A stretch of DNA of 64,000 nucleotides. It comes from a phage. The translations under genes and the position numbers were made by a program. The stretch lies in sequence record PZ445524.1. One strand, written 5' to 3'. Every line of letters starts with the position of its first letter. Position 1 is the first letter of the stretch. Under the pieces are notes generated by a model. That model was not told the DNA's origin, searched no databases, and was given only the letters and a program-made list of their open reading frames with translations. Below, one piece after another: positions 1,687 to 53,203 of the stretch.

Positions 1687-2067
1687 TCACTTAGTCAAAT
1701 TTTTTACACATGAATTATAAGAATTCACTACATACTCCATCGGAGCATTTTTACCGGTACGCCACTGGTAATTATTAGCCCAATTTGCCCAAAGCACAGC
1801 ACAGTAGTTTTCAATTTTTTCTTCGCGTGTAATTACATCCGAATTACGATATGCTTGAGCAGATTCATCTGGACGAATAGCTTCGTCAAAATTCGCCTGC
1901 ATTTGTTCTACTGTCTGTTTTGGAGCTTCTTTATAACACTTGACATTAGGATTATAAAATTTGCTTGAACAGTTTACAATTTTTCCTACATCAGACTGAT
2001 TTACTACCGGTCCTTGAGCTACACAACCAGCAAGACCTAATGCAATAACCAAAATAGCGATTTTCAT
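1687..2067 (-). CDS. Small lipoprotein (imm.1 position)
   Basis: Track start 2079 is TTG; in-frame ATG at 2065-2067 with GGAG 6 nt upstream gives MKIAILVIALGLAGC..., a signal peptide plus lipobox. Confidence 0.6.
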   Translation of the reverse strand: MKIAILVIALGLAGCVAQGPVVNQSDVGKIVNCSSKFYNPNVKCYKEAPKQTVEQMQANFDEAIRPDESAQAYRNSDVITREEKIENYCAVLWANWANNYQWRTGKNAPMEYVVNSYNSCVKNLTK

Positions 2068-2099
2068 TTCATTCTCCAAATCCGTATCAGTAGTTGATA

Positions 2100-2136
2100 G
2101 TTGTATAGTACCATAGAAGAACAGGGATGTAAACAG
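2100..2136 (-). promoter_or_regulatory. T4-type early sigma70 promoter (-35 GTTTAC, extended -10 TGGTACTAT)
   Basis: Minus-strand reading ctGTTTACatccctgttcttctaTGGTACTATac upstream of imm.1; the same cassette recurs near 27920 and 42064. Confidence 0.5.
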
Positions 2137-2221
2137 TTTTATGAAAAAAAATTTTTAGGGAATCCAAAGGGTCCAGAATCATCTCTTTTTCATAAGTATA
2201 GATTTATATTACTTGTATGAA

Positions 2222-2243
2222 AAAGGGACCTGGAGGTCCCTAG
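2222..2243 (-). terminator. Stem-loop gggacc-tgga-ggtccc followed by T-run, downstream of gene 43
   Basis: Perfect 6-bp GC-rich inverted repeat; minus-strand RNA has UUUUU after the stem. Confidence 0.5.
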
Positions 2244-11683: not shown

Positions 11684-12884
11684 ATTTTGTAATAATGTCA
11701 AACTGTTCTTTAAAGCAGAAGCTTGAATCTTGATGCTGATACAAAAATTCATATGCTTTTTCTCGCTCACGGTCATAAAGAGCTCGGTCAGATGACAGTT
11801 CTTTAATACGTTCAAATGTTGATTCCATGTCATTTTCATCAAACCAAATGATACCGCTATCATGCGAGGTCAAAGGAGTATTATCAACACGGAATTTTAA
11901 ATTTTCGCCAGTAGATTTCCAGAAAACAGGAATTGTACCGCAAGCACCTAATTCAAGATGAGTATATTCGAGTGAGCGTTGTAAGTATTTCTGGTTAAGT
12001 TTACTCAACTGATATCCAAAGCCAGATTTACTCATTCGTTCAAGCATTTCACTATTAATATAACAATCTAGGATTTGTGCCGGTTGATTCGGCGCGAGAT
12101 TCATTTTATCAATCTCACGATTACCGTAATATTCATACGGAATACCTTTTTCCTTAATTGCAATAAAAGCAGGGGAACGTTCAAGACCTTCCATTACAGT
12201 GGATTTACCAGAAGGTTTTAAGAATTTTTCGTGAAAATCAAACATCTGATAAAAACCTTTCCATGTAGTCGTACGACCAATCCAACGGTTGATGTTCATG
12301 TTAATTTCAGAAACATCTTTCCAATAAGTTGACCGAACCTTCGCAATATCCATAGGAGGCTGAAAGTTATATACTGTCGGTGCTTCTTCAATATCATCAA
12401 ACAGAGAAACAGTTTCTGGATACCATTCTTTCATCAGAACTTTATTAAAATCACCATTATCAGAATGGCTAAAAATAACATCAGCTCGACGAACAGTTTC
12501 TTCTAATCCCAAATTTCGACGCAAAGAAAGAACAGAATGATCATGCTGATAAACTACAACACGAATAGAAGGTTTAATATTATCTAAAAGTTTTTTATAG
12601 TTATTAATCGTGGCTTCTTGAACGGAAGTAGCAGGAACAGAATTAATAATTAGAATATCACAATCATTAATCAGTTTAAGTGCTTTATCGTATTCTTTAG
12701 CTAAAATAACTGGAATTGAAAATGATTTGTGGTCATGAGAACTTGTACGAGTAAATGATTTATCTTTAGCATAAACCAAAGTTACTTCATGACCATTTTT
12801 AATAAACCAATCACGTTGCTCGAGTGAGAATTTTGTTACACCACAACCTTCAAGACCCCGAGCCAGAAAAATGCATACTTTCAT
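11682..12884 (-). CDS. agt: DNA alpha-glucosyltransferase
   Basis: 400-aa ORF matching T4 Agt as recalled (MKVCIFLARGLEGCGVTKF...). Confidence 0.93.
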   Translation of the reverse strand: MKVCIFLARGLEGCGVTKFSLEQRDWFIKNGHEVTLVYAKDKSFTRTSSHDHKSFSIPVILAKEYDKALKLINDCDILIINSVPATSVQEATINNYKKLLDNIKPSIRVVVYQHDHSVLSLRRNLGLEETVRRADVIFSHSDNGDFNKVLMKEWYPETVSLFDDIEEAPTVYNFQPPMDIAKVRSTYWKDVSEINMNINRWIGRTTTWKGFYQMFDFHEKFLKPSGKSTVMEGLERSPAFIAIKEKGIPYEYYGNREIDKMNLAPNQPAQILDCYINSEMLERMSKSGFGYQLSKLNQKYLQRSLEYTHLELGACGTIPVFWKSTGENLKFRVDNTPLTSHDSGIIWFDENDMESTFERIKELSSDRALYDREREKAYEFLYQHQDSSFCFKEQFDIITK

Positions 12885-12938
12885 TTAATATCCTCTTTGT
12901 TTTGGTTCATTTTACCAAAAAATTTATAAAGCAATATA

Positions 12939-16923: not shown

Positions 16924-17394
16924 TTAATCATGTTTCCACACCCCATCGGTATTTGACCAAAGCCGCTGATTATCTGATCCTCGCCACAGCTTTTTAGTCG
17001 GAAGATTTTTCTCATACTTCCCATCAATAATAACATCAACATATTTAAGCATTTCTAGTTGTTTAATATCTTCAAACTTATATCCAGTCCACAACCAAAT
17101 GCTTTTATTGGGATAAAGATTTTTTACTGTTTGAACAATGCAATGAATAACATCTCGGTTATCAGGATAGAGAGGGTCACCTCCGGTTATAGTCAATCCT
17201 TCTATATAATCATTATTCAAACATTCAATTAATTGTTCTAGTGTTTCACCAGTGAATGGAACGCCATTTCTAGCATTCCATGTTGATTTATTATAACACC
17301 CTTCACATTTATGCAAACAGCCTGTAACGAAAAGAACGGTCCTGCAGCCAGGACCATTAATAAAATCGCAAGGATAAAATCTATCATAATTCAT
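16924..17394 (-). CDS. nrdG: Anaerobic ribonucleotide reductase activating protein NrdG (radical SAM)
   Basis: 156 aa with a radical-SAM-type cysteine cluster (CLHKCEGC); same length as T4 NrdG. Confidence 0.93.
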   Translation of the reverse strand: MNYDRFYPCDFINGPGCRTVLFVTGCLHKCEGCYNKSTWNARNGVPFTGETLEQLIECLNNDYIEGLTITGGDPLYPDNRDVIHCIVQTVKNLYPNKSIWLWTGYKFEDIKQLEMLKYVDVIIDGKYEKNLPTKKLWRGSDNQRLWSNTDGVWKHD

Positions 17395-19208
17395 TGGTGT
17401 TTAACCCTATGCATGATTTCTTTATTTTTGCCGAGATTAAATCCGCGTTCGTTCGGATTTCCCAAATAACCACACGTTCTTCTTATTGTGTTCATCTTTT
17501 TAGGATCAGTTTCTCCACAAATAGAACAAACAAATCCGTTTTCAGTAGGAGTCATTTCATGGGTACTTCCACATGTAAAACATTTATCTACTGGCATATT
17601 AACACCAAAATAATCTAAATGTTGTGCAGCATAATCCCACACGGCCTCAAGACCTTTCAAGTTATTTTTCATATCAGGAAGTTCAACATAAGAAATGTGA
17701 CCACCTGTCGCAATGAAATGATATGGCGCTTCACGAGAAATCTTTTCAAACGGAGTAATATTTTCTTCTACTGAAACATGGAAACTGTTAGTGTACCAAC
17801 CTTTATCGGTAACATCTTTTACGCTTCCATATTTTTCTGTATCGAGTTTACAGAAGCGATAACAAAGGTTTTCAGCAGGAGTCGAATATAAACTAAAAGC
17901 AAATCCAGTTCTTTCAGTCCACTGTTTAAGACGAGCATTCATTTTAGTTAAAATTTCTCGTCCAATATCACGACCGGCAAGAATATTCAATTCGTGAATA
18001 CCAATGTATCCTAAAGACACTGAACTTCTACCGTTTTTAAATAACTCAATTATGTCGTCATCAGGTTTAAGACGAACCCCGAATGCACCTTCTTGGTAAA
18101 GAATAGGAGCAACAGTAGCTTTAACTCCTTTTAAGGAACTAATTCTACACATCAAAGCTTCAAAACATAAATCCATTCGTTCATTAAATAGCTCAACAAA
18201 TTTCTGTTCATTGAACTGTGTTCCAATATAAGAATCTAACGCGATGCGAGGAAGATTCAGTGTTACAACACCAAGATTATTACGTCCATCAAGAATTTCA
18301 TTACCAGTCGAATCTTTCCATACGCTCAAGAAACTACGGCATCCCATCGGAGAAACAGGAACAGATGAACCAGTGATAGCTTTATTGTTCTTAGCTGAAA
18401 TAATATCAGGATACATCCTTTTGCTTGCACACTCTAGAGCAAGCTGCTTAATATCATAGTTCGGATCATCTTTATAAAGATTAACACCTTCTTCGACGAA
18501 CATAACAAGCTTAGGGAAAATAGGAGTTATCCCATCACGACCAAGACCTTTAATACGATTTTTCAGAATTGCTTTCTGAATCATTCGTTCAGTCCAGTCA
18601 GTTCCCGTACCAAATGTAATTGTTACAAAAGGTGTTTGCCCGTTTGAACTAAAGAGAGTATTTACTTCATATTCATAAGCTTGGAATGCATCGTATACGT
18701 CTTTTTCTGTTTTAGATTGAGCATAATTCAACGCATCAGCGATTTGCCATTTTTCTGCATCTTCAATATGTTTTGCATAGGTGCGTTTAACATAAGGAGA
18801 AAGTACTTTATCTACATTCGCAAAAGTCGTTCCGCCGTATTGGTGAGAAGCAACCTGTGCAGTAATTTGTGCCATAATTGCAGTAGCAACACCGATTGAT
18901 TTAGGAGTTTCAATCTGCGCATTACCAAGCTTAAATCCGTTCTCAAGCATTCCTTTTAAATCTACTAAACAGCAATTAGTAAATGGAAGAGCAGGGGAAT
19001 AATCAATATCATGGAAATGAATAATTCCGCTTTCATGCGCTTTCATAATAAAAGACGGGACCATATTTTTGGCAATGTGTTTAGACACAATACCAGCCAT
19101 AAGGTCCCGTTGAGTTGGAAAAACACGAGAATCTTTATTAGCATTCTCGTTTAAAAGGTCTTTATTAGTTTTATGAATCAATCCTTCAATTTCTTTTTCA
19201 ATTGTCAT
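17391..19208 (-). CDS. nrdD: Anaerobic ribonucleoside-triphosphate reductase NrdD, uninterrupted
   Basis: 605-aa continuous ORF; C-terminal glycyl-radical region (RRTCGYLGNP) and zinc-ribbon cysteines. Confidence 0.95.
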   Translation of the reverse strand: MTIEKEIEGLIHKTNKDLLNENANKDSRVFPTQRDLMAGIVSKHIAKNMVPSFIMKAHESGIIHFHDIDYSPALPFTNCCLVDLKGMLENGFKLGNAQIETPKSIGVATAIMAQITAQVASHQYGGTTFANVDKVLSPYVKRTYAKHIEDAEKWQIADALNYAQSKTEKDVYDAFQAYEYEVNTLFSSNGQTPFVTITFGTGTDWTERMIQKAILKNRIKGLGRDGITPIFPKLVMFVEEGVNLYKDDPNYDIKQLALECASKRMYPDIISAKNNKAITGSSVPVSPMGCRSFLSVWKDSTGNEILDGRNNLGVVTLNLPRIALDSYIGTQFNEQKFVELFNERMDLCFEALMCRISSLKGVKATVAPILYQEGAFGVRLKPDDDIIELFKNGRSSVSLGYIGIHELNILAGRDIGREILTKMNARLKQWTERTGFAFSLYSTPAENLCYRFCKLDTEKYGSVKDVTDKGWYTNSFHVSVEENITPFEKISREAPYHFIATGGHISYVELPDMKNNLKGLEAVWDYAAQHLDYFGVNMPVDKCFTCGSTHEMTPTENGFVCSICGETDPKKMNTIRRTCGYLGNPNERGFNLGKNKEIMHRVKHQ

Positions 19209-25929: not shown

Positions 25930-26457
25930 TTATGCGAGTACCGTCTTTAACCGTTCTTCAAACTTCCGAAGAGTGTTCTGGCGTTCAGCTCTTTGCTTTT
26001 TGTAAGTTTCAATACGCTCTGAAATGAGAGTGTATCGTTCATTTACTGATTCTTTCATAAAATCAGGAATTTCACGAGAAGCTTTAATCTCATCAAATTT
26101 ATCAATAACAGCTTGCTCTTCAGCAATTAAGTTATCATACATCAAAATATCTTTCTTGATGAACTCAATATCTTCTTGAGTTACACGAGATAATTTAGAT
26201 GCTTTATCCTTTTTGTACTGTTCATTAGTATCACGAGACCAGTGTAATGTACGATTTTTATTCGTATTTTTGTAAATTTCTACAATACCAATCTCATCGA
26301 TAATAACGATCCAATTCCAACGAGATTTGTAAATTTGCCCTCCGTCAACCGTGATTTCACCTCCGATTGAGATGTCATTAAAGAACTTGCTTTGTGCTTC
26401 AGATTTAAATTTACCATCGTTGTAATTTACCAGGTTGAAAATATCTTTAGCGTTCAT
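25930..26457 (-). CDS. Hypothetical protein
   Basis: 175-aa ORF with charged helical C-terminus. Confidence 0.5.
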   Translation of the reverse strand: MNAKDIFNLVNYNDGKFKSEAQSKFFNDISIGGEITVDGGQIYKSRWNWIVIIDEIGIVEIYKNTNKNRTLHWSRDTNEQYKKDKASKLSRVTQEDIEFIKKDILMYDNLIAEEQAVIDKFDEIKASREIPDFMKESVNERYTLISERIETYKKQRAERQNTLRKFEERLKTVLA

Positions 26458-26517
26458 TTTGTGTTCCTCCGTAGTTGATAGTTGTATAGTACCACAGAGG
26501 AACAGTCTTGTAAACCA

Positions 26518-26820
26518 CTAAAAGAAACTTCTTTCACAATTTTTTCCACTGAACCACGCGCTCACTGCTTTCTTAGTCTCAGGAGCAGTGTTATCCATAA
26601 ACCATTCAAAGGCAGCCTTTTTATGATTCTGGAGGGCTTCTCGGGCTTTAATCTGCTCACGGTCTATTAACACTAACATATGAGCCTTTCTTGTCACCAG
26701 GGGCTTCTTATGATTTTTTGAATACTCCCAATCATTTGTCCATCGCATCGTTGTTGCGAATTGAAGTACAGCTTCTTTAATCTTAGTTTCGTAAATTTCA
26801 CGAGCCTTTGAGTATAACAT
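26518..26820 (-). CDS. Hypothetical protein
   Basis: Track start 26832; ATGs also at 26823 and 26820; GGAGGT lies between the first and later ATGs, so 26820 is favoured. Confidence 0.4.
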   Translation of the reverse strand: MLYSKAREIYETKIKEAVLQFATTMRWTNDWEYSKNHKKPLVTRKAHMLVLIDREQIKAREALQNHKKAAFEWFMDNTAPETKKAVSAWFSGKNCERSFF

Positions 26821-26921: not shown

Positions 26922-27890
26922 TTATTTCAGAAGAGTAACCTCAGCGATTTCTTCCCAACCGTTTTTGTCGGTCATAATAAAGTCAGCAAGATAAAGAGCA
27001 GTACGCAGTGAAACATTGCGTAAACGGTTAACATTGACTTTCATCCATGATAATGCTTTATAAGTTTCTTCATCAGAAAGACCGCGCTTTTGCATCATGT
27101 CAGTTGAAAGAATAACATCTTCAACCCTGACCATAATTTCTTCATTAGTGTGAACACCCAAATCCAAATAAACTGAGCGGGACACTAATGCTTGTAAATG
27201 TGGAGCAAGTTTAGTACCACGGTCTAATTCGCGGTCAATGTCAACGTTTGTGATAAAAACAATCGTTCCTTTAAATTCAAACTCACGCTCAATGCCTTTT
27301 TCTTCTAAATAAGAAGATGCAGTGCTCCAGCAGACTTTACGGGTCTCTCCAGTGTCCAGAGCAGCTTTCAGAAGATTAAGAATGTCCATATCAGAGAAAA
27401 CATCCACATCATCAATCAAAAGGACAGAATTCTCTTCACGATTATTCCAGAGCTGTTCATAAAGACCGATACCAGAGATTTTACCGTTAATGCTTTTATA
27501 TTCAATGTATCCAATATCATTTGCTTTATTTAAAGCTTTATCTAAAGAATACGTTTTACCAATACCTGCTGCTCCCGAGATAATTAATGAACGAATATTT
27601 CCGTTAATAATACCATTCGTCATCATTCCCATAACATTAAATCTTTTATTAATGCGGGTTTTCATATCTTCATATGATTCTTTAACTTCTTCAACTTTTA
27701 CACCATCATATGAAATGTCTGATTTGTAAACCCAAACACCACGACGTTTACCGTCAATTTCAACAAAAACTTTACCATCTCCTTGTGCATCTACTGGTGC
27801 ATTATCTGGGAACCATTCGCCTAAGAGCTCAAAAGTTCCAGAGATTTCTTTACCGAAGTAGATACCCTTATTGATAGTTACAGTTTTCAT
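26922..27890 (-). CDS. P-loop ATPase
   Basis: Track start is TTG; ATG at 27888-27890 with GGAG SD gives 322 aa; Walker A GAAGIGKT and Walker B LLIDDVD. Confidence 0.6.
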   Translation of the reverse strand: MKTVTINKGIYFGKEISGTFELLGEWFPDNAPVDAQGDGKVFVEIDGKRRGVWVYKSDISYDGVKVEEVKESYEDMKTRINKRFNVMGMMTNGIINGNIRSLIISGAAGIGKTYSLDKALNKANDIGYIEYKSINGKISGIGLYEQLWNNREENSVLLIDDVDVFSDMDILNLLKAALDTGETRKVCWSTASSYLEEKGIEREFEFKGTIVFITNVDIDRELDRGTKLAPHLQALVSRSVYLDLGVHTNEEIMVRVEDVILSTDMMQKRGLSDEETYKALSWMKVNVNRLRNVSLRTALYLADFIMTDKNGWEEIAEVTLLK

Positions 27891-27919
27891 TTTATTCTCC
27901 AAATCCGTATCAGTTGATA

Positions 27920-27956
27920 GTTGTATAGTACCATAAAGCTTTATGCTTGTAAACAG
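27920..27956 (-). promoter_or_regulatory. T4-type early promoter cassette (copy of the 2100-2136 element)
   Basis: Shares the leader ccgtatcag...ttgatagttgtatagtaccat...gtaaacagtttt with the elements at 2081-2165 and 42041-42127. Confidence 0.45.
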
Positions 27957-27984
27957 TTTTGTGAAAAATTTTTGAAATAAAAAA

Positions 27985-28002
27985 GGGAGCCCGAAGGCTC
28001 CC
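27985..28002 (-). terminator. Hairpin gggagcc-cgaa-ggctccc after the nucleotidyltransferase gene
   Basis: 7-bp GC stem with UUCG loop in mRNA, 2 nt after the stop, followed by U-rich tract. Confidence 0.5.
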
Positions 28003-28004
28003 TA

Positions 28005-29015
28005 TCATTTATAATAACTTCGGTGGTTTTCAAGATAGACCTTCTCAAGGAAGTCATCCCAGAAACCCATGTCTACTTTTTGCTGCATACCGTTCTTAGA
28101 AGCTTCAGTAGATGCTGCTTCTACTTGATCGACCACATCTTCCAAAAACTCTTGAACCGTTTTAAATGGATGTTTACCCAACTTCACGTCGAGAATAAAT
28201 GGAGCGTCTTTGAGTGGATAGACTAAGTCGCCAGTTTTGTAAATTTCCAATAGTTGAAGTCCACCACGACAAGCATGGCTCAGAGCTTTCCAGTCAATGC
28301 CTTCGTTGGCTTCGGCCTTACGAGCGCGTTCACCATATTCAGCATCTAATTTGTTCAGTGACTGCTTAAGCTCAATAAGAGAAAGAGTTGTCTGATATTT
28401 ACGACCCAACACAGTGTAGAACGTTTGTGGGCCTGTTTTCTCATGATTATGAAATACCCATTCACAGAACTCGTTCTCTGGAAGACGATGCTTAATATCT
28501 TCAACTTTAGTGCGACGCTGCTTAATAGAACCATCTTCTTGGTAATCAACCCATTGCTCAGGGATTTGATTAACTACTTTCAATACATCGCGTAATGCAG
28601 CCAAACGAGAACCCTTGACACCGTATTTAGAAGCTTGCTTGCGAACATATCCTAAATATGATTTCATGTTAGTCGTATAAAAACGAGAACGGTTGTCTTG
28701 AATAAACTTCCACACATCAGGCAAATCAGATTTAACCACTAGCTCAGGTGGAGTGTGAAGCATATCTAATGCTACAGTTTCACCATCTGCTGCTAATTTA
28801 AAGAAATACTTAAGACTGTATAGTTCATGGTCAATATCATCTTTAGTGTTTTTAGATGATGTGTTGTTAGTGTTTTTACTCATATGCTCTTTGACGTTTC
28901 CGATAAGAATATCGCGAGCAGGAGGAACAAAAATTTCTTTAAAATCTACATCAGATTCTGGGGTAGAAGTTCCATAAAGATGACTACCAAAATAAGACTT
29001 AACTACAGTTTTCAT
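28005..29015 (-). CDS. Polymerase-beta-superfamily nucleotidyltransferase-like protein
   Basis: N-terminal motif GSHLYGTSTPESDVDF (GS-x10-DxD) plus a later acidic residue (VALDMLH). Start ambiguous: track 29051 is TTG, ATGs at 29039, 29030, 29015; the start region overlaps the 3' end of the HNH gene. Confidence 0.55.
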   Translation of the reverse strand: MKTVVKSYFGSHLYGTSTPESDVDFKEIFVPPARDILIGNVKEHMSKNTNNTSSKNTKDDIDHELYSLKYFFKLAADGETVALDMLHTPPELVVKSDLPDVWKFIQDNRSRFYTTNMKSYLGYVRKQASKYGVKGSRLAALRDVLKVVNQIPEQWVDYQEDGSIKQRRTKVEDIKHRLPENEFCEWVFHNHEKTGPQTFYTVLGRKYQTTLSLIELKQSLNKLDAEYGERARKAEANEGIDWKALSHACRGGLQLLEIYKTGDLVYPLKDAPFILDVKLGKHPFKTVQEFLEDVVDQVEAASTEASKNGMQQKVDMGFWDDFLEKVYLENHRSYYK

Positions 29016-29778
29016 TATTAGACCTTTCATAATCTTCATTAAATTGTACAATCAATCGATGATAATTAGATTTTGGATATCCTAATTTACTTATATAAGT
29101 TCCGAATGACCCACGTTTAGGTCTATTTAATTTAATCCATAACTTATAAAGTAAGTCATAGTCTTGCCAATGTTTACCAGTTCTTTGTCTAATTTTAGAT
29201 GAATTTGATTGTTTCTTTTTAGTTTCAAAATTATTCAAAGATTTTTTGACTGCAGCAGAGTGTTTTTCTTTAACTCCCGGTCGTTTAAAAGCAGCTTTCA
29301 CCCCTTTAGATATTTTTTCTTTAACTTCCGGTTTGTTTTGTGCTTCTAACTGGGATTCTGAAATTTTAGCCCTTATTTCAGGAAGACTTAATGTTATCGA
29401 ACGTTTTTCTCTGTATTCATTAGACTTCCACATTTCTTTCATTGTATTAGAATGTATTTTTGAAAATTTTTCTCTAACTAACTGATATCCTCTTGAAGTT
29501 AATTTGAGATTTCTTCCTAAAGAATCTTCTCCAAAATTATAAAATGACCACCATGCATAAATTAATCCAGGCGAATTATAATGAATTTTAGCTAAAAGCC
29601 AATGGGCTATAAAATGCTCTCTAGCTGTTAATAAAACTAGATTATCAGAATCATCATTACCACCAATACAAGATGGAATAATATGATGCTTTTCCGTATA
29701 AAAATTTAATTTAGATTTATCTAATTTTCTGAGTTTTCCTTTCTTAATTAAATTATTATATACTTTAGTATAATTCAT
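28999..29778 (-). CDS. mobD: HNH homing endonuclease (MobD-like)
   Basis: 259 aa; HNH core EKHHIIPSCIGGNDDSDNLVLLTAREHFIAHW; repeated basic C-terminal modules (PEVKEKISKGVKAAFKRPGVKEKHSAAVKKS). Confidence 0.75.
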   Translation of the reverse strand: MNYTKVYNNLIKKGKLRKLDKSKLNFYTEKHHIIPSCIGGNDDSDNLVLLTAREHFIAHWLLAKIHYNSPGLIYAWWSFYNFGEDSLGRNLKLTSRGYQLVREKFSKIHSNTMKEMWKSNEYREKRSITLSLPEIRAKISESQLEAQNKPEVKEKISKGVKAAFKRPGVKEKHSAAVKKSLNNFETKKKQSNSSKIRQRTGKHWQDYDLLYKLWIKLNRPKRGSFGTYISKLGYPKSNYHRLIVQFNEDYERSNNENCS

Positions 29779-30410: not shown

Positions 30411-30543
30411 AATTACATACTCCTTTGAATAATATCAATAATGTTGTTCACCAGATTATAAGTAAACATTGGGTAATTATATTGAATCATCACATACACA
30501 ACAAACAAAATTTTCATTCTCTTCTCCTTGACAGTTGACAAGA

Positions 30544-30577
30544 TTACTATACCATAACCTTGCCAACTTGTAAACCA
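30544..30577 (-). promoter_or_regulatory. T4-type early promoter (GTTTAC ... TGGTATAGT)
   Basis: Minus strand GTTTAC, 18 nt, TGGTATAGT. Confidence 0.45.
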
Positions 30578-31308: not shown

Positions 31309-31332
31309 GATGTTCTCCTCTTTATCCGATGG

Positions 31333-31368
31333 TTGTATAGTACCACAGCTCAAACGGAAAGTAAACCG
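31333..31368 (-). promoter_or_regulatory. T4-type early promoter
   Basis: Minus strand GTTTAC and TGGTACTAT, upstream of the 31120-31308 gene. Confidence 0.45.
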
Positions 31369-31382
31369 GTAAAATGAAAAAA

Positions 31383-34863: not shown

Positions 34864-35325
34864 TCATTGAGTTTTAATTACTGCTTTAGAAGCCTTTCCT
34901 GGTAAACGACGACTGTTGATAATTGCCATCCTACATTGAAGTGACGGGTCTTTGAACTTCGCGTTAGGTTTACAAACTGTAAATCCAAGCCAAAGATTTC
35001 CATCTGTGATTTCTAAACGTCCAGGACGATATTCAACCCCATCAATAAAATCCTCGTCAATGTCAGGACGCGGAGGCATACTCAGGAATTCATTAACTTC
35101 TAAAACATGGTCTTTTATTTTATGGAATAATTCAAAAACGTATGTCTCATCAATCTCCCGTTGAATTGCGCGATCAAGAAGATGCTGAGAATATTTTAGA
35201 TGAAACGATGAGACTCCTGCTGCTTTTGATGCCTCACGAATCTCATTGTTAATTTGACGAAACTCCGACTCAAAGTGACGACGAAGCTTATTTCGACGGA
35301 TAAAAACTTCTGTATTGATAGTCAT
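34864..35325 (-). CDS. regB: Endoribonuclease RegB
   Basis: 153 aa; matches T4 RegB as recalled (MTINTEVFIRRNKLRRHFE...). Confidence 0.9.
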   Translation of the reverse strand: MTINTEVFIRRNKLRRHFESEFRQINNEIREASKAAGVSSFHLKYSQHLLDRAIQREIDETYVFELFHKIKDHVLEVNEFLSMPPRPDIDEDFIDGVEYRPGRLEITDGNLWLGFTVCKPNAKFKDPSLQCRMAIINSRRLPGKASKAVIKTQ

Positions 35326-35384
35326 GTTATTCTCCTCTTAACTGATAGAAAAATTATACCACAGTCAAGAGGAAAAGTAAACAG

Positions 35385-37555: not shown

Positions 37556-38134
37556 TTAGGAATTACGGGCTGCATTAGCAACGGCATACGCGTACTGAAT
37601 ATTAGCGTCTTTAAACTTACCTTTAGAGGTATCTATTTCTGCCTTAAAGCCGCCTTTAGTCATAACATCGGCAAATTCTTTACGGAAAGCCATTGCATCA
37701 AGACCTTTCCATGATGATTTATGCTTAGCAAATTCAAGACCTGCGAAGTTAACAGCCTTAGCTAATTTATTATCAATAACCCATTTACCGGCTTTAGGCA
37801 CAAACTTCGGGCCTTTCTGTTTAGAGAACAGTTTTAAATTCCAGCGGCGAAGGTCTGCATCAGCTTTAACAAATTCTGAGTCTAAGTTACTAGCAACAAC
37901 ATCTTCAATATGAGCAAATTTAAGTCCGTCAACTTCAATATTTAAATCGGTACGCCAGCGAAGTCCTTCCCATGCGAAGGCTTTAAAGTCGGAAGCCTTT
38001 GTAGCTAAGTACCGTTCAATAGGAGCTGTTTTAGGGTCAAAGCCGTTTCCCGATCGGTAGGTCCACTCATCTTTGTTAATGCCTTTGGCCTTTACTACAG
38101 AAGCTTCGGCAATAAATTCTTGATATGTTTTCAT
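37556..38134 (-). CDS. ipIII: Internal protein III
   Basis: 192 aa beginning with the capsid-targeting leader MKTYQEFIAEA. Confidence 0.8.
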   Translation of the reverse strand: MKTYQEFIAEASVVKAKGINKDEWTYRSGNGFDPKTAPIERYLATKASDFKAFAWEGLRWRTDLNIEVDGLKFAHIEDVVASNLDSEFVKADADLRRWNLKLFSKQKGPKFVPKAGKWVIDNKLAKAVNFAGLEFAKHKSSWKGLDAMAFRKEFADVMTKGGFKAEIDTSKGKFKDANIQYAYAVANAARNS

Positions 38135-38150
38135 GCGTTTCCTTTAATTT

Positions 38151-38468
38151 TTATTCTTTAGGGAAGTTTTTAGAATATGCATCATAAAGCTTATTTCCAA
38201 TACGGCGGAAAACTCTAGCCGCAAAACGATTTTCTGGGTTTTTAATCATGATTTGCATCATATAAGTACCCGCGTCAGAAAGAGCTTCTTCATAGTACCC
38301 GTTAATTTCTTTAAGAGTCCTACGTTTACCACCAGGACCATCAACAGTGATTTTCCATTTACCTGTAGAAGTGCGACTTGGCGGCTCAACTTGTTCAATC
38401 CAAATATAACCGCCTTCTACACGTTGTCCTGCAGCAGATTCTGCAATAAATTCTTGATATGTTTTCAT
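38151..38468 (-). CDS. ipII: Internal protein II
   Basis: 105 aa beginning MKTYQEFIAES. Confidence 0.75.
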   Translation of the reverse strand: MKTYQEFIAESAAGQRVEGGYIWIEQVEPPSRTSTGKWKITVDGPGGKRRTLKEINGYYEEALSDAGTYMMQIMIKNPENRFAARVFRRIGNKLYDAYSKNFPKE

Positions 38469-38556
38469 GTGTTTCCTTTAAATATTTTAATTAGTAATTT
38501 GTCTCTTCAAGCAACTGTGAATATACTATCACAATTCTAGGAGAAAGTAAACAACT

Positions 38557-41473: not shown

Positions 41474-41516
41474 AGTATTTCCTTAGGTTAATTAAGATTT
41501 AAAATCCATGAGAGTA

Positions 41517-41693
41517 TTATACTCCGGATAGGTTGTAAACTATTTCAACATCGCCTTTTGCTGCTTTATAACCTTCAGCCCAAGATACAACCGAGTTTTT
41601 ATCCGAAGATTCAAATTCTGGCATTGGGCTTTCGCCAATGTTCACGCAGTATGTTTCTTCATTTTCGTCAAACCAAATAATTAAAGTAGTCAT
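41517..41693 (-). CDS. Hypothetical small protein (58 aa)
   Basis: Found by hand: MTTLIIWFDENEETYCVNIGESPMPEF... Confidence 0.3.
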   Translation of the reverse strand: MTTLIIWFDENEETYCVNIGESPMPEFESSDKNSVVSWAEGYKAAKGDVEIVYNLSGV

Positions 41694-41762
41694 TTATTTC
41701 TCCGTTTTCTGTATTTGTTTTGATAAGTCTATAATAACACCGTCCTTGGCGTTTGTACACAA

Positions 41763-42026
41763 TTATTTCATATTATTGAAATATTCTTCTGCGATTTCAT
41801 CGTTATCATGGTAAACTTTAGAAGACAGTTTAACATAACCTTCAGCAGTGAACATGTTAATCACAACCTTTACAGTATACCACTGACCATCTTCATTACC
41901 CATTACTGCGTAAGTTTCAAACATCGGATGGTCAGGACCGATAACTTTAATATCATTCACTGTACGACCAAAATCTTCTGAAACACATTTCATAAAGAAG
42001 TTGAACAGTTCACCGTAATTATCCAT
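41763..42026 (-). CDS. Hypothetical protein
   Basis: Track start is TTG; ATG at 42024-42026 preceded by the same GGAGAATAAA leader seen at 27890 and 2067. Confidence 0.45.
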   Translation of the reverse strand: MDNYGELFNFFMKCVSEDFGRTVNDIKVIGPDHPMFETYAVMGNEDGQWYTVKVVINMFTAEGYVKLSSKVYHDNDEIAEEYFNNMK

Positions 42027-42063
42027 TTTATTCTCCAAGTTGTTTTCTGTATCAGTAGTTGAT

Positions 42064-42100
42064 AGTTGTATAGTACCATGGAAGAACAGGGATGTAAACA
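42064..42100 (-). promoter_or_regulatory. T4-type early promoter cassette (near-identical copy of 2100-2136)
   Basis: About 80 bp nearly identical to 2088-2165. Confidence 0.5.
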
Positions 42101-42227
42101 GTTTTGTGAAAAATTTTTAGGGAATTCTAGGGCGGGGAGGGGCAATTAAAAGATAGGATAATATATTATAAAGGGTATAAACTAAATGACGCCTAGAGAG
42201 GTCTGGAAAGGCCTAGATACCAAAAAG

Positions 42228-42246
42228 CCCTATCATTTAGATAGGG
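42228..42246 (-). terminator. Intrinsic terminator ccctatc-loop-gataggg with U-tract
   Basis: 7-bp stem then CUUUUUG on the minus strand, 9 nt after the stop of the 187-aa gene. Confidence 0.5.
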
Positions 42247-42254
42247 ATTTAAAA

Positions 42255-42818
42255 TTATTTACCTAGTTTAGCTATTATAGCTTCGGCAGCAGCTTTTAGC
42301 TTAGATGCAGTGTTAATACGATTTTTAATTTCAGTATAAGCATCGCCAAGAACATCAAGGCTATCAGAATAAACACTTACACTATTGCGTTCGCTATTTG
42401 AAATAGAACCTTTAGTTTTACGATCAAAATCGGTATACACGTCTTGAAGATCGCGGGCTGCCTTCTTTGCATCATCCAATGCATCAAGAGCTTTATTCAA
42501 AGCATTAACATATTTTTTAGTGTCAAACATATTCTTAGAAATTTTGACAGGTGCGCGTTCAGGAGTAGCTAAGGCAGATTTAGGAACCTGTTTACCAGAT
42601 GCCAGTTTCTTAGAAATTTTGAAAAATGCTTTATTGAAATTATTTTCTTGACTCATCGTAAAAGAACTATTATCGATGTTATACATTTCAATAGCTTTAG
42701 CTTTCCACTTAAGAAAATCGCCCCGGTCTTTTGGGTCCAAGTGGAAGAATACTTTAGTAAGATCTGCTTCAGATGGTAATTTTGCTGCTTCGGTTAAAAA
42801 TTCTGCATAGGTTTTCAT
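42255..42818 (-). CDS. Internal-protein-like protein with capsid-targeting leader (187 aa)
   Basis: N-terminus MKTYAEFLTEAAK follows the MKT(Y/F)xEF(I/L)xE leader pattern of T4 internal proteins. Confidence 0.55.
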   Translation of the reverse strand: MKTYAEFLTEAAKLPSEADLTKVFFHLDPKDRGDFLKWKAKAIEMYNIDNSSFTMSQENNFNKAFFKISKKLASGKQVPKSALATPERAPVKISKNMFDTKKYVNALNKALDALDDAKKAARDLQDVYTDFDRKTKGSISNSERNSVSVYSDSLDVLGDAYTEIKNRINTASKLKAAAEAIIAKLGK

Positions 42819-42897
42819 TTAAAATCCTTGAAATAATTTATTGGTTATTAATTATTTATTATTGTAACAGCATTCTCCGAGTGATTCAAACTAAAAA

Positions 42898-43316: not shown

Positions 43317-43982
43317 TTAAAATTTCATTTTTCGACCTTTAAACCATCCTTCTGGAATTGGGTCAGTTTTCTTAATACGTTTAGAAACTTTTTCATCTAA
43401 TGAATGAATCCACATCATACCAAATTGGGAATTCTTTTCGCCCTGTTGATGTTTATTTCTGGCGTGAGATTCTTTCATTTTATTAATAGTTTCAGGAGTA
43501 TGATGCTTATTTAAAAATCTGCTATTATTTAAAAATTTTTCCCTGTATTCAGGAGTTGACCACAAGCGTTTAAATACATTTGAACCATGTTTACGATATT
43601 TTTCTTGAAGTAAAATATCATTTTTAAAACGTGACTTAAACGATTTAGCTCCTTTTAAGCTAGCATCTTTCTTCTGGTTTAGCATCCCAGGAATATTTAC
43701 ATGATCCCATCCACCTTCACCACCAAGTTTTAAATTATACACATCTGGTCTATTTAAAAACTCTTCTGTGACAATATTTTTCTCGGCTTCAAGCATAGAT
43801 TCTTTATCATCAAAATACTCTAATATTTCTTTAGAAAAATTTTCTATACCATATTTATCTTGGGCTCTTTTTAATAATTTACCAGAACCCATATATCCAT
43901 CATCTAAATTTTCGGTAGAATGCGCACCAATATAAATTTTATTATTAATTTTATTTGTTATTTTATAAGTGTAATGGAACAT
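43317..43982 (-). CDS. segB: GIY-YIG homing endonuclease SegB
   Basis: 221 aa; GIY-YIG motif (YTYKITNKINNKIYIGAHST); sits between tRNA subclusters as in T4. Confidence 0.85.
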   Translation of the reverse strand: MFHYTYKITNKINNKIYIGAHSTENLDDGYMGSGKLLKRAQDKYGIENFSKEILEYFDDKESMLEAEKNIVTEEFLNRPDVYNLKLGGEGGWDHVNIPGMLNQKKDASLKGAKSFKSRFKNDILLQEKYRKHGSNVFKRLWSTPEYREKFLNNSRFLNKHHTPETINKMKESHARNKHQQGEKNSQFGMMWIHSLDEKVSKRIKKTDPIPEGWFKGRKMKF

Positions 43983-45385: not shown

Positions 45386-45571
45386 CTATTCACCTTTAGA
45401 AATTTTATCCATAACAATAGCGATTAAACCAATTAAAAATGCTACTACAAGTGAAAACACATTTTCTGATGTAGTTAATAATCCGCATATAAATCCAACA
45501 AACATTGAAAAACTAAAAGCGGAAGCAGAAATTGCAATAGCAACATTTCGAATTAATTCACAACGTTTCAT
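45386..45571 (-). CDS. Small two-helix membrane protein (61 aa)
   Basis: ATG at 45569-45571 with GAGGAG SD (MKRCELIRNVAIAISASAFSF...); two hydrophobic segments. Confidence 0.45.
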   Translation of the reverse strand: MKRCELIRNVAIAISASAFSFSMFVGFICGLLTTSENVFSLVVAFLIGLIAIVMDKISKGE

Positions 45572-45632
45572 TTTATTCTCCTCAGTAGTTGATAGGGTAA
45601 TAATATCACTATTAAAACCCAATGTAAACAAT

Positions 45633-45857
45633 TTATTCAACACCAGCGGCTTTCAAAAGTTTTTTAAGATTGGCAACACCTTGAGCAGAAAATGTGACCT
45701 TGCCACCTTTTTCACTGATAGAACCAACCAATTTAGCAAGTTTATCATTAGGAATTTTTTTAAAATCAGCCAATGTTCCATCAAAGGTTTTTGAAACAAA
45801 AGGCAGTTCGTCTTCATGTCTTTTAGCTTCTGCAATAAATTCTTGATATGTTTTCAT
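45633..45857 (-). CDS. ipI: Internal protein I-like (capsid-targeted, 74 aa)
   Basis: Starts MKTYQEFIAEAKRH (ATG 45855-45857); in the T4 ipI position upstream of 57B. Body not verified against T4 IPI. Confidence 0.6.
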   Translation of the reverse strand: MKTYQEFIAEAKRHEDELPFVSKTFDGTLADFKKIPNDKLAKLVGSISEKGGKVTFSAQGVANLKKLLKAAGVE

Positions 45858-45892
45858 TTTAGTTTCCATTTGGATGTTTTGTTTTGATAGGG

Positions 45893-45926
45893 TAATAATA
45901 TCACCACCCTATCTAAAAGTAAACAG
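45893..45926 (-). promoter_or_regulatory. T4-type early promoter of the ipI-like gene
   Basis: Minus strand GTTTAC, about 18 nt, TGATATTAT within the conserved ttttgatagggtaata element. Confidence 0.45.
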
Positions 45927-45934
45927 TTTATAAA

Positions 45935-46243
45935 CTATTTTATTCCGCGTGATGCAATTGTGTTCTGTCGTTTAACACCAGTTTGTTTAAAGTCATGATT
46001 GTCGATTTGATCGGTACGAGCAACTCCGAATGATGATTTGATTTTAGCTTTAGATCCTTTAGTTATAGAAATAAACATCTCGGAAGCCCCTTTCTTAAAG
46101 TCCGAGGCGATTACTTCAACGCCGTTCTTAGCAAGTGACTTCAGAATTGCCTCTGCATACTCATCGTCAAGACTCGTCTGAGTATTAATAACGAATGTCT
46201 TTGGCGCAGCCGCTTCATTGATAAATTCTTTAAATGTTTTCAT
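45935..46243 (-). CDS. Internal-protein-like protein with capsid-targeting leader (102 aa)
   Basis: Starts MKTFKEFINEAAA; basic body. Confidence 0.55.
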   Translation of the reverse strand: MKTFKEFINEAAAPKTFVINTQTSLDDEYAEAILKSLAKNGVEVIASDFKKGASEMFISITKGSKAKIKSSFGVARTDQIDNHDFKQTGVKRQNTIASRGIK

Positions 46244-46271
46244 TTTATTTTCCTAATTAATTTTGATAGGG

Positions 46272-46305
46272 TAATAGTATCACTACTAAAACCACATGTA
46301 AACAA
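46272..46305 (-). promoter_or_regulatory. T4-type early promoter (IP cassette)
   Basis: Minus strand GTTTAC, 18 nt, TGATACTAT; the 5' leader is nearly identical to that of the next gene. Confidence 0.45.
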
Positions 46306-46315
46306 CTTTGTGAAA

Positions 46316-46573
46316 TTATTTTAAATCTTCTAATCGTTTCTTCATCTTAGAACCGTTCTTAGCGATTTCGCCTGCATCAGAGCATAATGCTAAAAGCGCT
46401 TTAACTTTAGTTTGGTCTCCTTTAAAAGATGAAGGATCCACAGCAGCAGCAAGTTCTTTAATACGAGAGAAAAGACGCTCAGCTTCAGCTAAAGCCATTC
46501 CAAGCTTTACTTCCATACCGTGGGAAGATTCAGTGATAGTAGTTTTTGTAGCAAACTCTTTGAAAGTTTTCAT
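46316..46573 (-). CDS. Internal-protein-like protein with capsid-targeting leader (85 aa)
   Basis: Starts MKTFKEFATKTTITE. Confidence 0.55.
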   Translation of the reverse strand: MKTFKEFATKTTITESSHGMEVKLGMALAEAERLFSRIKELAAAVDPSSFKGDQTKVKALLALCSDAGEIAKNGSKMKKRLEDLK

Positions 46574-46601
46574 TTTATTTTCCTAATTAATTTTGATGAG
46601 G

Positions 46602-46635
46602 TAATAGTATCACTACCTCATCAGTATGTAAACAA
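46602..46635 (-). promoter_or_regulatory. T4-type early promoter (IP cassette)
   Basis: Same element as 46272-46305 with a few substitutions. Confidence 0.45.
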
Positions 46636-46645
46636 CTTTGTGAAA

Positions 46646-47342
<697 letters not shown>

Positions 47343-52414: not shown

Positions 52415-52909
52415 ATGGAAGGTTCTTCTATCGACGTCACCTTTACCGCTCAATTAGAAACAGGTGAAACGTTAGTATCTATAAATATAACTAGTTACGA
52501 AGAAACTCCTGGGGTTTTAGTAGAAGAAAATCGCTTATATGGAACATATGAATCTGTGTTTGGATTTGGAAATGACGCGTTGAAATATCGACTAGGCGAT
52601 GAATTTAAAACTGCTGCTTCATGGGAAGAACTTCCTACTGATTCTGACACTCAGTTGTATTTGTGGAAAGCTCCTCAGAATCTCCAGAAGACATTCACTT
52701 ACGAAGTAACATTAATATATGACTACCAAGAACAAAGTGAATCTGGGGGTTCTGGCAGTAATTCTAGGTCATCTTCTGATACTACTGAACCGACAGATCC
52801 TCCTGCTCCAGTAAGAAAAACTCTCGTTAAAAATTATACTAAAACTATAGTTGGAAATTGGAGTCGTTGGGCTAATAAACTGAGAAGCTATGTGTATGAG
52901 AGGCCATAA
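52415..52909 (+). CDS. 5.1: Baseplate-associated protein gp5.1
   Basis: ATG at 52415 with AGGAG SD; track ORF begins at 52352 inside gene 5. Confidence 0.7.
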
Positions 52910-53203
52910 ATGTCAGGATTAAGTTATGATAAGTGTGTTACTGCTGGCCATGAAGCGTGGCCTCCAACAGTTGTGAATGCTACACAAAGTAAAGTATTCA
53001 CTGGAGGAATTGCTGTTCTAGTAGCAGGCGATCCAATTACAGAACATACAGAAATTAAAAAGCCATATGAAACACATGGCGGAGTGACACAACCCAGAAC
53101 TTCTAAGGTATATGTCACTGGAAAGAAAGCTGTTCAAATGGCTGATCCAATATCATGTGGTGATACTGTGGCTCAGGCATCATCTAAAGTATTCATTAAA
53201 TAG
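52910..53203 (+). CDS. 5.4: PAAR-repeat spike-tip protein gp5.4
   Basis: 97-aa ORF immediately after 5.1, same length and position as T4 gp5.4. Confidence 0.85.

Follow-up and report, generated by a model that had tools for sequence, protein, structure and literature searches.

The dispersed repeats in this stretch of phage DNA (64,000 nt, hereafter the window) are very probably immediate-early expression cassettes of the T4 type, the form that the promoter-early stem-loop (PeSL) element takes in T-even phages. Their promoter and leader anatomy would make each repeat a complete immediate-early expression module, and indel junctions in related phages fall in or directly beside each of the three main copies, which we call A, B, and C. 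As the PeSL phenomenon has been published for T4 and PST (PMC4122927), the finding of the cassettes is already known; the mosaic exchanges at the imm.1-, e.8-, and nrdC.9-type copies, together with a negative enrichment test, may be new details.

Judged from its sequence, the window is a mosaic Tequatrovirus, about 97 to 98% identical to T4. A 2-kb query around the site at 2,041 to 2,165 was 98% identical to T4 over imm, imm.1, and gene 43, with ~500 other Tequatrovirus records also matching. A 25-kb query returned T4 as its best match (92% coverage, 96.8% identity) and no record identical to the window among its matches. Local BLAST chains showed the window to be collinear with T4, PST, RB14, RB32, and G2133, and flank divergence among the compared genomes was only 2 to 5%. 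Because the genes of the window up to ~50 kb lie on the minus strand, the cassettes are read as reverse complements. Compared to T4, the window is without mobB, mobC, the nrdD intron with I-TevII, and segC (absences at 12875-12900, 17374-17394, 18670-18673, and 52906-52911); these junctions are clean, and none lies at a promoter cassette. A mobD-like ORF (28999-29778) and a segB-like ORF (43317-43982) are kept.

Copies A, B, and C all lie on the minus strand. Copy A reads ATTCCCTAAAAATTTTTTTTCATAAAACT-GTTTACA-TCCCTGTTCTTCTATGG-TACTAT-ACAACTATCAACTACTGATACGGATTTGGAGAATGAAATG up to the imm.1 start, and copy C repeats it from ATTCCC to GATAC apart from a T-run that is 3 nt shorter and two substitutions, continuing beyond GATAC as AGAAAACAACTTGGAGAATAAAATG and then e.8. 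Near-identical elements of about 80 bp had been predicted at 2088-2165 and 42047-42127, and the aligned homology (2084-2163 versus 42049-42125) indeed extends over ~80 nt with only the 2 substitutions and the single 3-nt T-run indel, ending sharply at both sides. A 65-nt pattern with two degenerate positions matched exactly at 2084-2148 and 42049-42113, nowhere else in the window, and not once in 100 dinucleotide shuffles. A third copy, expected near 27896-27975, was located at 27888-27983; its UP tract, extended -10, and A-type leader are common with A, and its spacer (AAGCATAAAGCTTTA) is different. The genes downstream of the three copies, imm.1, nrdC.10, and e.8, are unrelated to one another. 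The 21-nt core GTTGATAGTTGTATAGTACCA occurs exactly at 2093, 26474, 27913, and 42058, compared to 0 occurrences expected by chance, and was never found in shuffled sequence; copy D, in front of an nrdC.9-like gene, also shares this core. A repeat search grouped six copies as one family, D1.

Table 1. Features of the early-promoter cassettes and neighboring elements in the window
Feature	Coordinates	Strand	Details
Cassette A hairpin, terminator-like, after gene 43	2224..2241	-	AGGGACCTCCAGGTCCCT + TTTTT; 91 nt upstream of -35
Cassette A AT-rich UP-like tract	2135..2165	-	ATTCCCTAAAAATTTTTTTTCATAAAACT; start of A/C homology
Cassette A core promoter	2105..2134	-	-35 GTTTACA 2128-2134; 17-nt spacer; TG-extended -10 TACTAT 2105-2110
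Cassette A leader	2065..2104	-	ACAACTATCAACTACTGATACGGATTTGGAGAATGAAATG; SD GGAG 2074-2077; imm.1 ATG 2065-2067
imm.1 CDS	1687-2067	-	T4 annotation; Pfam DUF5481
Cassette B hairpin, terminator-like, after nrdC.11	27984..28003	-	AGGGAGCCTTCGGGCTCCCT + TTTTTT; 31 nt upstream of -35
Cassette B promoter	27888..27983	-	UP-like tract; -35 GTTTACA 27948-27954; -10 TACTAT 27925-27930
Cassette B leader end		-	SD GGAG 27897-27900; nrdC.10 ATG 27888-27890
Hairpin of upstream 187-aa ORF	42228..42246	-	CCCTATCTAAATGATAGGG + CTTTTT; 130 nt upstream of cassette C
Cassette C promoter	42024..42127	-	UP-like tract; -35 GTTTACA 42093-42099; A-identical spacer; -10 TACTAT 42070-42075
Cassette C leader		-	...GATACAGAAAACAACTTGGAGAATAAAATG; SD 42033-42036; e.8 ATG 42024-42026
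Accessory ORF, 187 aa, PHROG 2280	42255..42818	-	In window and RB14; absent from T4, PST, G2133
Cassette D, nrdC.9-like gene, same family	26455..26529	-	1439 nt from B, same orientation; D and B flank nrdC.10
Distant D1 family member	31313..31380	-	Promoter with TACTATACAACC, hairpin ahead
Four tandem Ip-type early-promoter cassettes	45570..46661	-	G of GTTTAC at 45629, 45924, 46303, 46633

The similarity reaches beyond the short -35/-10 consensus, as the ~80-nt block shared by A and C includes the nonconsensus spacer. Fourteen early promoters of the window with standard 17-nt spacing align gap-free in one register (the e.6 promoter at 41540, with its shorter spacer, was excluded). Among these 14, the 13-nt spacer has a mean pairwise identity of 0.34, compared to 13/13 identical positions between A and C, and the 15 nt after the -10 have a mean of 0.49, compared to 15/15. 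We regard A and C, and in part B and D, as paralogous copies, since what they have in common goes far beyond the class consensus. The expectation that related copies of the leader would precede other genes also stood, with the leader end, GGAGAATAAAATG, matching 16 times on the minus strand versus once on the plus strand at up to 2 mismatches. A position-weight-matrix scan built from the 14 promoters found no further copies in the window, but this matrix was overfitted and fixed in spacing, so that the null scan is no evidence of absence.

Outside the window, an 85-nt query had 4093 matches in 552 phage records, or about seven in each genome. Nearly all of these records belong to Tequatrovirus, and Salmonella phage STML-198 has a 48-nt partial match. 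The exact 21-nt core stands ahead of at least 8 different genes in T4-like contigs of IMG/VR, including a motB-like gene and two others outside the window; that scan comprised 21 stretches on 8 contigs, a sample suited to the diversity of downstream genes and too small for statistics.

A consensus scan identified TTTACA-17-TACTAT with the TG extension in all three copies on the minus strand. The AT-rich tract ahead of the -35 reads CCCTAAAAATTTTT(TTT)CAYAAAACT in A and C and TTTTTTATTTCAAAAATTTTTCACAAAACT in B, and GGAG stands 6 to 7 nt ahead of the ATG in imm.1, nrdC.10, and e.8. Gene 43 lies directly upstream of cassette A by the T4 annotation, and some related records annotate a "promoter" at the orthologous site. 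The stem-loop of cassette B is an 8-bp GC-rich hairpin followed by a T-run, and in A and C other sequence lies between the terminator-like hairpin and the promoter. Two further elements were seen near the cassettes. A perfect 14-nt palindrome (CATAAAGCTTTATG, 27932-27945) lies within the cassette B spacer and is kept in all relatives examined. Between the gene 43 terminator and cassette A, a conserved 60-nt stretch (2165-2223) contains TATAAATC and a second sigma70-like match, TTTTCA-17-TATACT, and may be another imm.1 promoter, either late or weak early.

In the mechanism that we propose, host sigma70 RNA polymerase would bind the UP-like tract, the GTTTACA -35, and the TG-extended TACTAT -10 across the 17-nt spacer. 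Transcription would start a few bases downstream of the -10, giving the 35- to 45-nt leader of the cassettes. Because this leader carries both the Shine-Dalgarno (SD) motif GGAG and an optimal RegB/S1 cleavage site (GGAGAAUAAAA), the message would be translated at once and then inactivated, while the upstream terminator-like hairpin would separate the module from the preceding gene. The same 65- to 100-nt block, repeated before unrelated genes, would offer homology or microhomology to T4's very active recombination system. The comparison with relatives shows different ORF inserts joined inside the cassette, either between the -10 and the SD/ATG or in a duplicated hairpin/UP/-35 block. It also shows that patches have passed between paralogous copies, in the form of spacer haplotypes and, in RB14, of a whole leader.

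The strong RegB/S1 cleavage site of T4 early mRNA leaders has the consensus GG*AGRAYARAA (Uzan & Miller 2010, PMC3014915). In B and C the SD, GGAGAATAAAA, fits this consensus without mismatch, and exact sites are located at 27890-27900 (B), 42026-42036 (C), and 45571-45581 (one further cassette); the corresponding site of cassette A, GGAGAATGAAA, has one mismatch. We infer that the leaders of B and C would be RegB sensitive, a prediction made here from sequence. Folding from the -35 to the ATG was no more stable than that of shuffles for A, B, or C (z of +0.7, +1.1, and -0.8), and no Rfam family was found at these three cassettes.

Elsewhere in the window, 5 of the 15 early-promoter cassettes form a strong hairpin (z of -4.6 or lower versus shuffles) in which the spacer pairs with the leader and the -10 lies in the loop (minus strand, 26455-26515, 30515-30575, 35325-35382, 45860-45924, and 46573-46633). 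This spacer-leader hairpin is absent from A, B, and C. Two haplotypes of the arms exist in the Ip-type cassettes, GATAGGGT/ACCCTATC and GATGAGGT/ACCTCATC, and both are fully paired. The spacer of cassette D is complementary to its own SD, and in the nrdC.9-like and regB cassettes the 3' arm of the hairpin covers the SD, so that read-through RNA would hide the ribosome-binding site and RNA from the proximal promoter would not. In one cassette out of three the spacer is complementary to the leader or SD, an arrangement that would make translation depend on the proximal early promoter.

The original prediction treated the cassettes as plausible recombination sites that mark where accessory genes were inserted or exchanged, and the junctions found in relatives at A, B, and C support it. 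Site B, the gap between nrdC.11 and nrdC.10, is the clearest case. Roughly 40% of the full-length megablast matches sampled have an insert there, a spread sample of these matches contained four insert sizes (about +260, +434, +480, and +620 bp), and three inserts were examined as sequences, those of G2133, PYps15T, and JK38. G2133 has a 565-bp extra stretch with a 161-aa ORF. The alignments to its left and right have 53 nt in common (window 27949-28001), which span the hairpin, UP tract, and -35, so that this block stands at each end of the insert. PYps15T, with two inserted ORFs, and JK38, with one, follow the window across the resident hairpin and promoter through ...ACAACTATCAA, then diverge, and rejoin it at (T)TGGAGAATAAAATGAAAA, so that their junctions fall after the -10 (...CTATCAA) and at the SD/ATG; each of these inserts brings a second early promoter. 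The ORF of G2133 (29264-29749) is a Mod-like ADP-ribosyltransferase paralogue, 25 to 32% identical to modB of other genera. It is found in G2133, T2, and ~44 Tequatrovirus records, always at site B, and is absent from the window and T4. A break at window position 27914 in phage PM123 was excluded from the junctions, being due in part to the end of a linear record.

At site A, phages of the U115 type carry a 233-bp insert with two small ORFs, bounded on one side by the cassette ATGAAAAT and on the other by a second ATGAAAAT, which is now the imm.1 start. At site C, a 643-bp segment of the window is absent from T4, PST, and G2133, and the junction is the hairpin upstream of the cassette. The 187-aa ORF in this region lies between two terminator hairpins (42219-42246 and 42862-42890) that both end in GGGCTTTTT; T4, PST, and G2133 have one hairpin and no ORF at this place, and RB32 has a different ORF between duplicated hairpins. 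The RB32 ORF near site C is annotated as flanked by a 34-bp imperfect direct repeat. Downstream of C, T4, RB32, and G2133 have a replacement of the e.7 slot (41489-41731), and its left junction lies in the e.6 promoter.

How much of the variation in gene content falls at cassettes was assessed with indels of at least 60 bp between the window and T4, PST, RB14, RB32, and G2133, merged into 48 distinct breakpoints over the first 50 kb. Depending on padding, 4 to 10 of the 48 lay in or within 100 nt of the 15 cassettes (p of 0.01 to 0.1), a weak enrichment over random positions. Most breakpoints were at gene boundaries. Cassette junctions had breakpoints in 6 of 15 cases versus 23 of 77 other gene junctions (Fisher odds ratio of 1.6, p of 0.31), and within junction space the five genomes gave no preference for cassettes (binomial p of ~0.9). 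Many of the other indels were homing-endonuclease genes (mobB, mobC, the I-TevII intron, segC) or ORFs inside operons. Cassettes thus serve as junctions without being the dominant or a statistically preferred class in this sample; given rough gene calls and five genomes, the missing enrichment is a caution rather than a refutation.

Exchange between the copies themselves was followed in A and C copies aligned from six genomes. At imm.1, the window, PST, and RB14 have the e.8-type spacer ATCCCTG, and T4, RB32, and G2133 have a D-like one, AAGACTG. RB14 carries the whole e.8-type leader at imm.1, including a 6-nt indel, and in PST the same upstream CAT variant occurs in both the A and C copies. 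Orthologous A copies differ from one another at 2 to 11 positions in ~80 nt, as many as paralogues do. With 3 differences in this alignment, A and C of the window are the closest pair of the six genomes; those of T4 have 8 and differ in the spacer. Averaged over the six genomes, A and C were not systematically homogenized within a genome (7.5 differences within versus 7.6 between, permutation p of 0.57), which argues for occasional patch transfer rather than continuous homogenization. The near-identity of A and C in the window is one lineage-specific state of this patch exchange. Megablast matches could not separate the RB14-type hybrid imm.1 leader from normal alleles and e.8 copies. Citing the e.8 leader at RB14 imm.1 and the two spacer haplotypes as support for ectopic patch donation, we tentatively suggest that dispersed cassettes may repeatedly swap patches over tens of kilobases by ectopic gene conversion, making hybrid promoters and leaders that would rewire accessory-gene expression and RegB sensitivity.

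Selection could in principle account for the repeats, if it kept every copy, independently of the others, at the best sequence for a very strong early promoter with a RegB-sensitive leader, the copies had no special role in recombination, and indels simply fell at gene boundaries. The consensus of T4 early promoters does extend beyond the -35 and -10 (PMC2988021), and both the lack of enrichment over other gene junctions and the lack of within-genome homogenization fit such an account. We nevertheless consider it unlikely. A and C are identical over a spacer that is otherwise so variable between promoters, and orthologues fall into two discrete spacer haplotypes. The RB14 imm.1 copy with its complete e.8-type leader and 6-nt indel, the insert junctions on cassette motifs, and the duplicated 53-nt block of G2133 also speak against it.

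That the repeats are ends or attachment sites of mobile elements, served by a dedicated site-specific recombinase or homing nuclease in the manner of integron attC sites instead of by general recombination, is highly improbable. The integron analogy was drawn by the PeSL authors, and several different inserts do occur at site B. However, the junctions vary in position (after the -10, at the SD/ATG, in the UP/hairpin block, and in terminator tails), the examined inserts lack terminal inverted repeats and bring along no gene for a nuclease or recombinase, and the homing-endonuclease indels of the window are not at cassettes. It is hardly credible that a structured cis-regulatory RNA, whether riboswitch-like or a protein-binding leader, explains the conservation: the leader ACAACTATCAACTACTGATAC is conserved beyond the promoter and other cassettes of the window form strong hairpins, but A, B, and C fold no more stably than shuffles and match no Rfam family. 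Immediate-early cassettes that also act as substrates for general recombination remain the reading that we prefer.

PeSLs were defined in RB49 and phi1 as a promoter plus a stem-loop, with ORF shuffling via recombination and mini-circles (Arbiol et al. 2010, PMC2839356), and were then reported for PST/T4 and nt-1/KVP40 (Comeau, Arbiol & Krisch 2014, PMC4122927). The PST/T4 consensus, TTTACW-N17-TAYWAT with an AT-rich upstream region and an SD and ATG at the 3' end (PMC4122927), fits A, B, and C. Like PeSLs, the cassettes of the window combine an AT-rich tract, early promoter, SD, and ATG with a stem-loop upstream, are dispersed before small nonessential ORFs, and have indels between close relatives beside them. 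Their junctions between the -10 and the SD/ATG lie in the zone where mini-circle crossovers were sequenced (PMC2839356). Two features differ. The hairpin is adjacent in canonical PeSLs but lies 91 and 130 nt from the -35 in A and C (31 nt in B), and the breakpoint association in the window is statistically no stronger than at other gene junctions; the PeSL papers claim a preferential association with breakpoints, although this does not strictly define the element, and their authors left site-specific recombination open. The predicted resemblance to PeSLs holds for the promoter, AT tract, SD/ATG, and indel association; for the adjacent stem-loop it holds at B and only loosely at A and C.

T4 early promoters have been described as UP/-35/TGn/-10 "uber" promoters with extra consensus (Hinton 2010, PMC2988021). 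The cassettes share with them the GTTTAC -35, 17-nt spacer, TG-extended -10, and A/T-rich upstream tract, as well as a position upstream of prereplicative genes (imm.1, nrdC.10, and e.8, assigned from the T4 annotation), but A, C, and partly B and D have in addition an identical spacer and a 20-nt block after the -10.

For T-even internal-protein loci, conserved promoter/leader/targeting-sequence elements are described by Repoila et al. 1994, as cited in PMC2839356 and PMC4122927. To the extent that these citing papers portray them, such loci are similar in that early-promoter repeats bracket small swappable ORFs, and the Ip locus of the window (45.6-46.7 kb) has four in tandem. They differ in that the Ip-type copies form a distinct subfamily, GTGATAYTATTACCCTATCA, in which inverted repeats often surround the -10, and include a coding capsid-targeting sequence, whereas A, B, and C stand before non-Ip genes 25 to 40 kb apart. 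In our repeat search the Ip-locus cassettes fell into the related subfamily D2/D4/D5. The internal-protein loci of the window (45570-46661 and 38095-38486) have tandem early-promoter cassettes 295 to 379 nt apart and capsid-targeting coding repeats, ATGAAAACATATCAAGAATTTATTGCAGAA (families D3 and D5, with a 109-nt repeat at 88%), and their gene content differs in every relative compared.

Current understanding is unchanged by these cassettes. A systematic treatment of patch exchange or of spacer-leader pairing would be a modest addition to the published PeSL picture, and the absence of a breakpoint excess relative to other gene junctions helps to gauge the share of genome plasticity that cassettes explain. 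For annotation, a cassette indicates where an early transcription unit begins and where gene content is likely to vary most, in this case at imm.1, between nrdC.10 and nrdC.11, in the e.6-e.8 region, and at the Ip locus. The finding is also an example of how small accessory genes are shuffled in T4-like phages around a core that stays conserved. Such a gene either moves together with a standard "plug", made up of promoter, leader, and ribosome-binding site, or inserts downstream of one and would thus be expressed at once, and the repeated plugs would in turn provide handholds for recombination.
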